A stretch of DNA of 64,000 nucleotides, taken from assembly GCF_003018255.1 (NCBI RefSeq), contig NZ_CP027440.1. One strand, written 5' to 3'. Positions 17,869 through 20,445 of this stretch are shown here, one piece after another. Position numbers and translations under genes: made by a program. Every line of letters starts with the position of its first letter. Within the stretch, counting starts at the first letter, position 1. This DNA comes from Escherichia coli. GTDB taxonomy: Bacteria; Pseudomonadota; Gammaproteobacteria; Enterobacterales; Enterobacteriaceae. The notes under the pieces were generated by a model that worked only from the letters and a program-made list of their open reading frames with translations, was not told the origin of the DNA and searched no databases.

Positions 17869-19164
17869 CTACAGCGGGTAGTGTGCGACGTACACGGCTT
17901 GCTGGTTATTAATTCTTTTCTCTTGCGCGAATCCTTCTTTAACAATTGTCCGTAAATCAGCTCGAGCCGTATTATCAGAGACGCCCAAGCTCGCGCTAAT
18001 TTCAGCAACTGTGTACTCTTTCCCCGGATTGGCGAGCATCACATTCAGGAGCGTTACCTGGCGCGGATTCAGGCGTTTAAGCACACCAGAGCTAAACAGC
18101 ACACTATCGAGTTTTGCGCTTCGTTGTGTAATTTCATCGATATGCTGCTGCCAGTTTTGCAGAGCACGTTTAATGACACCCGCCTGATATTCAAGGAAAT
18201 AAGTCAGATCCATACCATCTGATTCAGTGTACTGGTAGCTGGCGGCATATTTGACCGGTGCAGCATGAAGCAAACGGCTGATGGAAATATATTTAAAGAC
18301 ATCGTAGCCCGATTTCAGCATATACCAGTAAAACAGCGCCCGACTGGTGCGCCCGTTGCCATCGCGAAACGGATGTTCATGGGCCAGCATAAAATGCAGA
18401 ATGCAGGCACGGACCAACGGATGAATATACCCTTCATGGCTGTTTAACCACTGGCAAACTTTTTCCAGCCGTTCCGGTAACAATGCCGCAGCGGGCGGTT
18501 GATGCACTATATTGCCATCATAGTCGGCGATCACAACATCATCTGTTTCACGAAATTCTCCCGGACGATATTTCGCGTCATTGATTCCACCCATACCAAT
18601 GGCATGTAACTGGCGAATAAGCGCAGGTGTCAGCGGTTCTGCGAGTAAGTGCGGAATTTCCGCCATCAGCCGGGCATTTCCCGCAATCATATGCTCGTCT
18701 TCAGTGCGTGGCGACCGCCCTGTTTCCAGCATTTTTCTCGCCACCAGCGTTGTAGTATTCGCACCTTCCAGTTGGGAACTGGTGATCGGCTCTTCCAGGC
18801 GTAACTGACTTAACTCGGCGCCCGCCCCGCGTAACCGTTCAGTCTGATCTTTCAGCGCCAGTGCAGTGGCATGTTTATCAACAAGCTCGCACGCTTCTGC
18901 AATCACCGGCGTAATGTTGAATCCGGCCTGTTCACCCGCTTCATTGCAATAATTAATTCGTTGGATCGCCGCGTTGCGCGCCAGACGGGTAAGCGTCCAC
19001 GCCACATCGACGTTTTCTCCTTTTTTGATGCGGTACTGCAGCTCATCAAAAGGCAGATAACGTCCTTTTTCATCGGTAACCCGGTTAAAGCGCAGGTGGG
19101 CCAGGAGTTCCTCACCCGATAAGTGTGATAAAGGAATAAGTCCGGGAGGTGATTTGATAGCCAT
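17869..19164 (-). CDS. Fic-domain protein (class II, with C-terminal winged-helix-like region)
   Basis: 431 aa; canonical Fic motif [14 protein letters not shown]; candidate inhibitory motif SSQLEG (S/TxxxEG/N) N-terminal to it; about 110 aa of C-terminal extension. Confidence 0.8.
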
Positions 19165-19169
19165 GTGCT

Positions 19170-19248
19170 TATCTCAAAAAAGCGCAATATTGAGATAGTG
19201 TATAGCAGGAAAGAGAAACTATCTCAAAAATCGCAAATTTTGAGATAG
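19170..19248. promoter_or_regulatory. Two tandem palindromes (arms CTATCTCAA/TTGAGATAG, 12-bp spacer, about 49 bp apart) immediately upstream of the Fic gene
   Basis: tatctcaaaaaagcgcaatattgagata at about 19170..19198 and ctatctcaaaaatcgcaaattttgagatag at about 19219..19248; the first begins 6 bp from the Fic start codon. Confidence 0.5.
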
Positions 19249-19251
19249 TTT

Positions 19252-19278
19252 AAAAAATGGCTGACAATTAGACAGCCA
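19252..19278 (-). terminator. Putative rho-independent terminator of yiaY
   Basis: Near-perfect 21-bp palindrome tggctgacaattagacagcca just past the yiaY stop, followed on the minus strand by a T6 run (plus-strand aaaaaa at about 19252..19257). Confidence 0.5.
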
Positions 19279-19293
19279 TTGTGGGAATGATGA

Positions 19294-20445
19294 TTACATC
19301 GCTGCGCGATAAATCGCCATAATTTCTTCGTGAGTTGCCTGAATCGGGTTAGTAAACCCACACGCATCTTTCAGGGCATTGGTTGCCAGCACTGGAATAT
19401 CTTCTTCTTTCACGTTCAGGTCACGCAGGCCTGCCGGGATATTCACTTTCTTCGCCAGTTCACGGATGGCATTGATGCACGCTTCTGCGCCTTCCGCGTC
19501 ATTTTTGCCTGTCACGTTAACGCCCATGGCAGCAGCACAGTCACGCAGACGCGCAGCAGCGACTTTGCTGTTGAACACCTGAACGTGTGGCAGCAGAACG
19601 GCATTACATACACCATGTGGCAGGTTGTAGAAACCGCCCAGTTGGTGCGCCATCGCATGAACATAACCAAGAGATGCGTTGTTGAATGCCATGCCAGCGA
19701 GGAACTGGGCATAAGCCATTGCTTCACGCGCTTTAGCATTGCTGCCATCTTCAACGGCTAACGGCAGGTTTTCGGCAATCATGGTCACGGCTTTCAGTGC
19801 GCAAGCGTCAGTGATCGGCGTGGCGGCAATAGAAACATACGCTTCGATAGCGTGCGTTAAGGCATCCATACCCGTTGCGGCGGTCAGTGACTTCGGCATA
19901 CCGACCATCAGAGATGAGTCATTGACAGAAAGCAACGGAGTTACATGTTTATCAACAATCGCCATTTTGATATGACGCGCTTCGTCAGTGATGATGCAGA
20001 AACGGGTCATTTCAGAGGCCGTACCCGCCGTGGTATTGATGGCGATCATCGGCAGCTGCGGTTTTGCAGAGCGGTCAACGCCTTCGTAATCGCGAATATC
20101 GCCGCCATTGGCTGCCACCAGCGCAATACCTTTTGCGCAGTCGTGCGGAGAACCACCGCCTAAGGAGATCACGCTATCGCAATTATTTTCTTTAAGTAAT
20201 TTTAAACCTTCGGCGACGTTTTCCGTGGTGGGGTTAGGTTGGGTGCCATCATAAATAACGCTAAAAATATTGCGTTCTTCCAGTGCTTTTTGCACATCAC
20301 CCGCCATACCCAATTTCGTTAACATGTTGTCGGTGACAATTAAGGTACGGGTAAATCCATAATCTGCCATCATATTCATTGCATCATTCAATGAATCAGC
20401 ACCAATAACATTCACGGAAGGAATAAAAAAGGTTGAAGCTGCCAT
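19294..20445 (-). CDS. yiaY: Iron-containing (group III) alcohol dehydrogenase
   Basis: 383 aa, Fe-ADH family sequence; position between aldB and selB. Confidence 0.85.

Follow-up and report, generated by a model that had tools for sequence, protein, structure and literature searches.

Two copies of one palindrome occupy the spacer upstream of a Fic gene in Escherichia coli, and together they are a real, strongly conserved cis-element. Comparison of homologous loci suggests that the pair probably consists of autorepressor operators, bound by the Fic protein itself in a loop of negative autoregulation. This type of control is already known from Fic autorepressors of the CccR type, while the operator itself is previously undescribed and widely conserved. 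The palindrome has the form TATCTCAA-N12-TTGAGATA and was found at positions 19170-19197 (proximal copy) and 19220-19247 (distal copy) of the window (i.e., the whole 64-kb stretch of DNA that was analyzed). These two were the sole matches to this form in the window when up to two mismatches were allowed, against a chance expectation of 0.01, and two or more matches were obtained in 0 of 100 shuffled sequences. The two matching palindromes that a preliminary description of this DNA had reported upstream of the Fic gene are therefore confirmed.

The distal copy was the more extended of the two. As a candidate operator it spans 19216-19251, and it forms a perfect 14-bp inverted repeat (19216-19229 and 19238-19251) around an 8-nt centre, with the core form at 19220-19247. 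The arms of the proximal candidate operator (19170-19197) are perfect over 8 bp and mismatched at the ninth pair (t19169 versus g19198); neither palindrome is assigned to a strand. Of the 9-mer arms CTATCTCAA/TTGAGATAG originally ascribed to both copies, only those of the distal copy are thus exact. Two distances were also revised: the proximal arm ends 5 nt before the Fic ATG (complement of 19162-19164) instead of 6 bp, and the palindrome centres lie 50 bp apart (~4.8 helical turns) instead of about 49 bp. Read in the direction of Fic, the 129-bp spacer between yiaY and Fic consists of the yiaY terminator, the distal palindrome, 22 nt separating the two palindrome cores, the proximal palindrome, 5 nt, and the ATG at 19164. 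The intrinsic terminator of yiaY (19250-19280, minus strand) combines the stem AATGGCTG/CAGCCATT (19256-19263 and 19273-19280) with a run of six T at 19250-19255, and it stands directly upstream of the distal palindrome, which agrees with the earlier claim that the distal copy abuts it.

The gene order on the minus strand is yiaY (19294-20445), Fic (17869-19164), and aldB. [quoted passage not shown] The Pfam Fic domain was detected at residues 177-281 (E = 1.7e-19), and the active-site motif HPFx[D/E]GN[G/K]RxxR is present at residues 264-275 and invariant in homologues. The class II inhibitory motif, (S/T)xxxE(G/N), is represented N-terminal to the Fic core by SSQLEG at residues 129-134, with S129, Q131, L132, E133, and G134 invariant in homologues and a model pLDDT below 50 at residues 130-137. 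The wHTH is encoded at 17884-18084 on the minus strand (residues 361-427). A cluster of weak matches to Pfam HTH families covered residues 361-414, and the single-chain AlphaFold2 model (mean pLDDT 87) displayed a canonical winged HTH made up of helices 367-378, 386-393, and 397-409 and a wing of strands within residues 413-427. The recognition helix corresponds to residues 396-409 (17938-17979, minus strand).

The best Foldseek matches extended over both domains and were CbFic2 (8CIL), SoFic (3ZCN/3EQX), and CccR (7XUX). The PADLOC profile for SoFic (PDLC03963) aligned residues 96-427 to profile positions 30-351 of 361 with E = 1.1e-43, an offset that reflects some 65 extra N-terminal residues relative to proteins of SoFic length. 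The NCBIfam SoFic equivalog NF046030 scored 39.3 bits against a cut-off of 550. Because the PADLOC profile matches while the equivalog falls far below its cut-off, the sequence places the window Fic in a distinct subfamily that shares the architecture of SoFic, CccR, and CbFic2, and not among SoFic orthologues. No separate antitoxin ORF was found on either side of Fic, in the intervals to yiaY and to aldB, and the locus was not classified as a type II toxin-antitoxin operon, which has a separate antitoxin gene. The EcSofic/AS1 model (PMC12249575) was likewise set aside, as the window locus lacks a small downstream ORF and the window Fic is related only distantly to EcSofic (9VJC).

The preliminary description had proposed a search for the same palindrome upstream of Fic homologues. 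We scanned one genome per species and obtained 80 loci with relatives 36-96% identical to the window Fic, and the palindrome proved to be conserved in many genera, in unrelated contexts, and at fixed distances from the ATG. The eight closest relatives were from Escherichia albertii, Pseudescherichia, Salmonella diarizonae, Photorhabdus, Erwinia, an Enterobacteriaceae isolate, Rahnella, and Pectobacterium. In each of these eight, TATCTCAA-N11/12-TTGAGATA was located 2-6 nt from the ATG on its upstream side; the left arm differed at one or two positions in Erwinia and the Enterobacteriaceae isolate. E. albertii, Pseudescherichia, and Salmonella diarizonae also had the distal copy. Next, all loci were searched for the general form nnnnnCAA-N12-TTGnnnnn with at most two arm mismatches. 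This form was present in 31 of 81 loci, centred at -13 to -21 and/or -64 to -71 from the ATG and mostly with a CTCAA/TTGAG core, while the remaining ~450 kb contained only 24 generic matches. Specifically, the proximal site (centre -13 to -21) was found in 28 homologue loci and the window, and the distal site (centre -64 to -71) in 18 homologue loci and the window; the distance between proximal and distal centres was 49-52 bp among homologue loci. When spacers of 8-20 nt were allowed, a proximal site was detected in 37 of 75 loci, against 0.014 expected per 25-nt window, and a distal site in 25 of 75. The proximal spacer was N12 in 28 of 39 matches, N10 in seven, and N11 in two. About half of the more distant homologues had no detectable site of the CAA-spacer-TTG form among these 75 loci.

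The hosts of the N12 form were Gammaproteobacteria of several orders and one Leptolyngbya cyanobacterium, and Sulfurovum and other Campylobacterota carried a related form, AACTCAAA-N8-TTTGAGTT (N10 between CAA and TTG). The aldB/yiaY flanks were shared by E. albertii only, and the remaining loci were located in unrelated genomic contexts. Because these flanks are absent from all other loci, the comparison indicates that the palindromes travel with the Fic gene and not with its neighborhood. Spacer length was conserved while spacer sequence was free and A/T-rich. Within Escherichia the arms were invariant, with substitutions confined to the distal spacer or to the segment between the two sites.

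Other layouts were also observed. In a more distant subgroup from Pseudomonas (L022, L025, L033, and L046), the ~100 nt upstream of the Fic start contained CTCAA-N19-TTGAG around an inner palindrome, CCTCnGTTTCAnGAGG, beside the ATG, and ATTTCAGA-N4-TCTGATAT at about -64. In Alcanivorax quisquiliarum, a second cluster of the motif typical of its clade (TTGAGATG ... TCATCTCAA-N12-TTGAGATGA; positions 1275-1340 of locus L041) preceded a HigA-like HTH gene (ORF 1407-1745) by ~70 bp and lay 1.1 kb upstream of Fic. The Fic regulator may have a second target in this cluster, which may alternatively be a relic of another copy.

Metagenome contigs were also queried with the exact motif, which retrieved 80 loci, among them 11 at Fic genes or their remnants. 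Two copies 49-50 bp apart were present in ten of these, and all ten were at this Fic gene or its remnant, while the eleventh locus had a single copy 2 nt before a homologue of 41% identity. In the other 69 loci the single copy stood beside neither an ORF nor a Fic gene, its spacer was mostly not A/T-rich, and the number of such loci is consistent with chance, given 16 specified bases and the size of the collection. The exact motif alone is therefore not diagnostic, and the metagenome search is informative for paired sites only. At one locus from a human gut metagenome (L095, positions 2835-2911) both palindromes were intact and the Fic frame stopped after 37 codons, with no further Fic homology detected past that point. 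This locus has decayed while its operators stayed.

The position of the palindromes is closely tied to a predicted promoter of the Fic gene. A predicted -35 hexamer, TTGAGA (19222-19227, minus strand), is supplied by the distal palindrome's ATG-side arm, and a predicted extended -10 element, TG-c-TATACA (19199-19207, minus strand), follows 17 nt past it and ends 1 nt before the proximal arm. A strict sigma-70 scan made no call for an E. coli promoter on the Fic strand, where TATACA lacks the final T. The assignment was made because the positions of TAnnnT and TTGAGA are conserved among loci, and not from the E. coli sequence alone. Specifically, the distal ATG-side arm matched TTGACA at five of six bases in 18 of 19 distal sites, and a TAnnnT hexamer, often after TGn, adjoined the proximal site on its promoter side in nearly all loci. 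In loci with a distal site, the ATG-side arm TTGA(G/A)A was located 17-18 nt upstream of this hexamer. The strict scan was passed by 10 of 28 homologue loci, and 11 of its 12 matches ended within -3 to +1 nt of the proximal arm. This arrangement predicts that transcription starts around 19190-19194, within the arm of the proximal palindrome that faces the promoter, and the palindrome spans the predicted start, the entire short leader, and a Shine-Dalgarno (SD)-like GAG. The spacing of the two sites, previously read as about five helical turns, is better explained by this promoter geometry, in which the -35 is provided by the distal arm and the -10 directly adjoins the proximal one. A promoter-like match was also seen on the plus strand (TTGAGA-17-GACAAT, 19240-19268), opposite to Fic and directed into the 3' end of yiaY, and the TTGAGA arm probably gives rise to it incidentally.

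The half-site varied by clade, the observed variants being TATCTCAA, CATCTCAA, TGTCTCAA, CACCTCAA, (C/T)ATTTCAA, and TTTTTCAA. Position 4 of the half-site tracked the N-cap residue of the recognition helix: Ser occurred with CTCAA, and Ala with TTCAA in five of five loci, which fall in three separate clades of a neighbor-joining tree. The corresponding residue of the window protein is S396, and the window half-site with T for C at position 4 would read TATTTCAA. In the two loci with CACCTCAA, Glu replaces Asp397. This covariation suggests a putative first piece of a recognition code, in which half-site position 4 is C where the helix N-cap is Ser and T where it is Ala.

Three characterized Fic proteins provide a frame for these observations. 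CccR of Yersinia pseudotuberculosis (YPK_0951, PDB 7XUX) is both a Fic toxin and a transcriptional autorepressor, which represses its own promoter via palindromes near the -35 and -10, as determined by footprinting, EMSA, ITC, and lacZ fusions; its binding requires the C-terminal domain and dimerization, and the DNA-binding helices of the homodimer are 70.2 Å apart (PMC9755527). Like CccR, the window protein is a class II Fic with a C-terminal HTH/wHTH domain and carries inverted repeats close to the -35 and -10 of its own promoter; such repeats are conserved across loci, the promoter being predicted, and the half-site spacing of 20 bp (~68 Å) is close to the separation of the CccR helices. 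On the other hand, the two proteins share only ~18% identity in the Foldseek structural alignment and differ in length (380 residues in CccR versus 431). Their operators also differ. That of CccR is one wide inverted repeat, AGATAATCAT-N26-ATGATAATCT, a half-site and spacing that the window does not have, whereas the window has two 28-bp N12 palindromes with a CTCAA/TTGAG core. Moreover, CccR functions as a T6SS effector and has a wider regulon, neither of which is known for the window Fic. The likeness to CccR, as an analogy, would therefore be one of mode of action and not of site.

The second precedent is SoFic of Shewanella oneidensis (SO_4266, PDB 3EQX/3ZCN). A preprint reports that its dimer, and not the monomer, binds specifically to the 100 bp that precede its own start codon (bioRxiv 10.64898/2026.07.09.737422). 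The window Fic has the same architecture (PADLOC SoFic profile, E = 1e-43, residues 96-427). In place of CTCAA/TTGAG palindromes, the SoFic promoter fragment contains ATGTCGAT boxes, and what is reported is binding to a 100-bp fragment in which the site is unmapped. In that fragment (F1 in Table S2 of the preprint; bioRxiv 10.64898/2026.07.09.737422) the boxes are repeated, including an inverted pair ACATGTCGATTGAATCGACAT, and a further TATGTCGAT stands ~20 nt before the start. The ATGTCGAT boxes are an obvious candidate for a SoFic operator, which would be different from that of the window. A direct comparison of the CccR operator and the SoFic promoter fragment with the window sites revealed no shared motif or spacing.

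The third is CbFic2 of Coxiella burnetii (PDB 8CIL), whose wHTH binds DNA, which stimulates dimerization and AMPylation of histone H3 (PMC10628234). It was the best Foldseek match and combines Fic and wHTH as the window protein does, but its reported DNA binding is largely non-specific and has no known cognate operator. Beyond Fic proteins, AbiEi and the antitoxins of type II toxin-antitoxin systems belong to autorepressed modules in which palindromic operators over the -35 and -10 keep toxic activity low. The window locus would follow the same logic by analogy, except that toxin and repressor would be one polypeptide.

We consider it probable that the two palindromes are operators of this kind. 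A Fic homodimer would place its two C-terminal wHTH domains on both half-sites of one palindrome, the half-site centres being 20 bp (~68 Å) apart on nearly the same helix face, a spacing that would fit the widely separated wHTH domains of such dimers. The distal operator would overlap the -35, its TTGAGA arm being the hexamer itself, and the proximal operator would extend from 1 nt past the -10, over the transcription start and the whole ~27-nt leader, to 5 nt before the ATG. Occupancy of the operators would block RNA polymerase and result in negative autoregulation, by which a potentially toxic AMP-transferase (a SoFic-like, PADLOC-defined defense candidate) would limit itself to a low level. 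The interleaving of the sites with the promoter would then require the 49-52 bp between them. We infer Fic binding, the resulting repression, and cooperativity between two dimers alike. The suggestion, made when the sites were first described, that they form an operator pair for the C-terminal domain of Fic itself thus gains support of a comparative nature from the conserved sites, the wHTH, the covariation of half-site and helix, and the CccR and SoFic precedents.

Alternatively, the palindromes could act as RNA hairpins, the distal one stopping or attenuating read-through from yiaY and the proximal one burying the leader from the SD-like GAG to 5 nt before the AUG, so that the effect would be translational control or insulation of a toxin gene from outside transcription. 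We regard this as unlikely. The 161-nt sense RNA does fold well (-41.2 kcal/mol, z = -6.5), the distal palindrome was flagged as terminator-like with a T-rich stretch after it, and the sole SD-like element lies in the 3' arm of the proximal hairpin (GAGGTGA in loci L015 and L016). However, the conserved -10 abuts the 5' arm of the proximal palindrome, and transcripts from the gene's own promoter would start inside that arm; such mRNA therefore could not form the proximal hairpin. The stem of the distal copy has G-C in only 3 of 14 pairs and a weak T-run, and its non-Watson-Crick positions on the sense strand are mainly of the A.C type (12 A.C versus 2 G.U). At the proximal site the sense-strand mismatches are instead 6 G.U versus 0 A.C, which hints at selection at the RNA level. 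Arm changes were of both kinds: some were one-sided and uncompensated (L007, L008, and L011; TGGCTCAA/TTGAGATA in Erwinia and TAGCTCAA/TTGAGATA in the Enterobacteriaceae isolate), which speaks for recognition as double-stranded DNA, and others were joint (TATC to CACC), which are equally expected for an RNA hairpin. A fixed 12-nt "loop" of free sequence between arms conserved across phyla fits recognition by a protein better, as does the fact that half-site identity tracks a protein residue. As an explanation of the element, the 5'-UTR stem-loops put forward in the preliminary description are less supported than operators.

The candidate of a known structured RNA or a canonical intrinsic terminator was also rejected. 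An Rfam scan of 19050-19350 found no family and returned only a sub-threshold miRNA match (18 bits against a gathering score of 90), and the distal stem has only three G-C pairs. In the predicted minimum-energy fold of 19135-19295 (minus strand), the arms pair in a nested manner and not as two local hairpins, the distal 5' arm with the proximal 3' arm and the distal 3' arm with the proximal 5' arm. This nested pairing arises because the four arms have one common sequence. The proximal palindrome may additionally serve as a fold-back that silences transcripts reading through from yiaY, a role confined to such transcripts. A broader proposal, in our view improbable and drawn by analogy with CbFic2, which DNA-induced dimerization activates, and with SoFic, whose AMPylation requires the dimer, is that the palindromes are a high-affinity DNA platform that sets the oligomeric and enzymatic state of Fic, in addition to a proximal RNA fold-back that silences read-through. 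If true, operator occupancy would couple toxin or defense activity to the state of the chromosome, and one DNA element would serve three layers of control over a single-gene toxin.

Two further explanations fared worse. Control of the Fic gene by a host transcription factor other than Fic, encoded elsewhere, is very unlikely: nothing specific speaks for it beyond the fact that the motif could in principle match an uncharacterized regulon, while the sites follow a single Fic gene into unrelated contexts and distant taxa with no second conserved gene alongside, have no further copy in the 64-kb window, and have a half-site that covaries with the Fic recognition helix.

The other, that the palindromes are recombination or mobility sites (i.e., a cassette boundary, an attachment site, or a MITE-like repeat), has to be weighed against the distribution of the gene within the species. 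Among 5426 complete E. coli genomes, the Fic gene was present at the window site in 1572 (29%), O157:H7 among them, and three alleles of the aldB-yiaY spacer were distinguished. The Fic-positive allele with two palindromes (17869-19251 of the window) is that of the 1572 genomes. A Fic-less allele found in 576 genomes retains the whole distal palindrome and a third TATCTC joined to TGTAA (strain 144; positions 270-320 of locus L205), and the K-12-type Fic-less allele keeps only CAACTATCTC|TGTAAC (positions 470-500 of locus L001). The two Fic-less alleles differ by 36 bp, which corresponds to a deletion between direct TATCTC repeats. Mobility would thus be suggested by a gene that is present or absent as a single-gene cassette (1572/5426 genomes) and by Fic-less alleles that both join exactly after the TATCTC half-site, one of them with an orphan palindrome. 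Nevertheless, we hold this explanation to be highly improbable, since the repeats are confined to one side of the gene with no copy at its 3' end, they keep a constant distance to the ATG and the -10/-35 in all contexts, no recombinase is nearby, and deletion between short direct repeats is a simpler account of the junctions. Likewise, insertion of a cassette into an empty site was judged less likely than deletion. Because operator half-sites persist in the Fic-less alleles and the gene occupies the same position in E. albertii, these alleles appear to point to gene loss and not to insertion.

Literature searches with the O157 locus tags and the protein accession returned nothing relevant, and searches with the motif strings returned only shRNA and primer noise. 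Proteins that combine Fic and wHTH domains occur widely, and those of the SoFic type are cataloged as a phage-defense system. To our knowledge, the cellular restraint of toxic AMP-transferases is only partly understood. The result generalizes the CccR precedent and introduces no new principle. It supplies a large, uncharacterized Fic subfamily with a precise predicted operator, made up of two copies of the core CTCAA-N12-TTGAG that interleave with the -35 and -10, with a predicted promoter, and with a first piece of a putative recognition code. Within E. coli, K-12 is a natural Fic-less host, and an allele with an orphan operator exists in nature.
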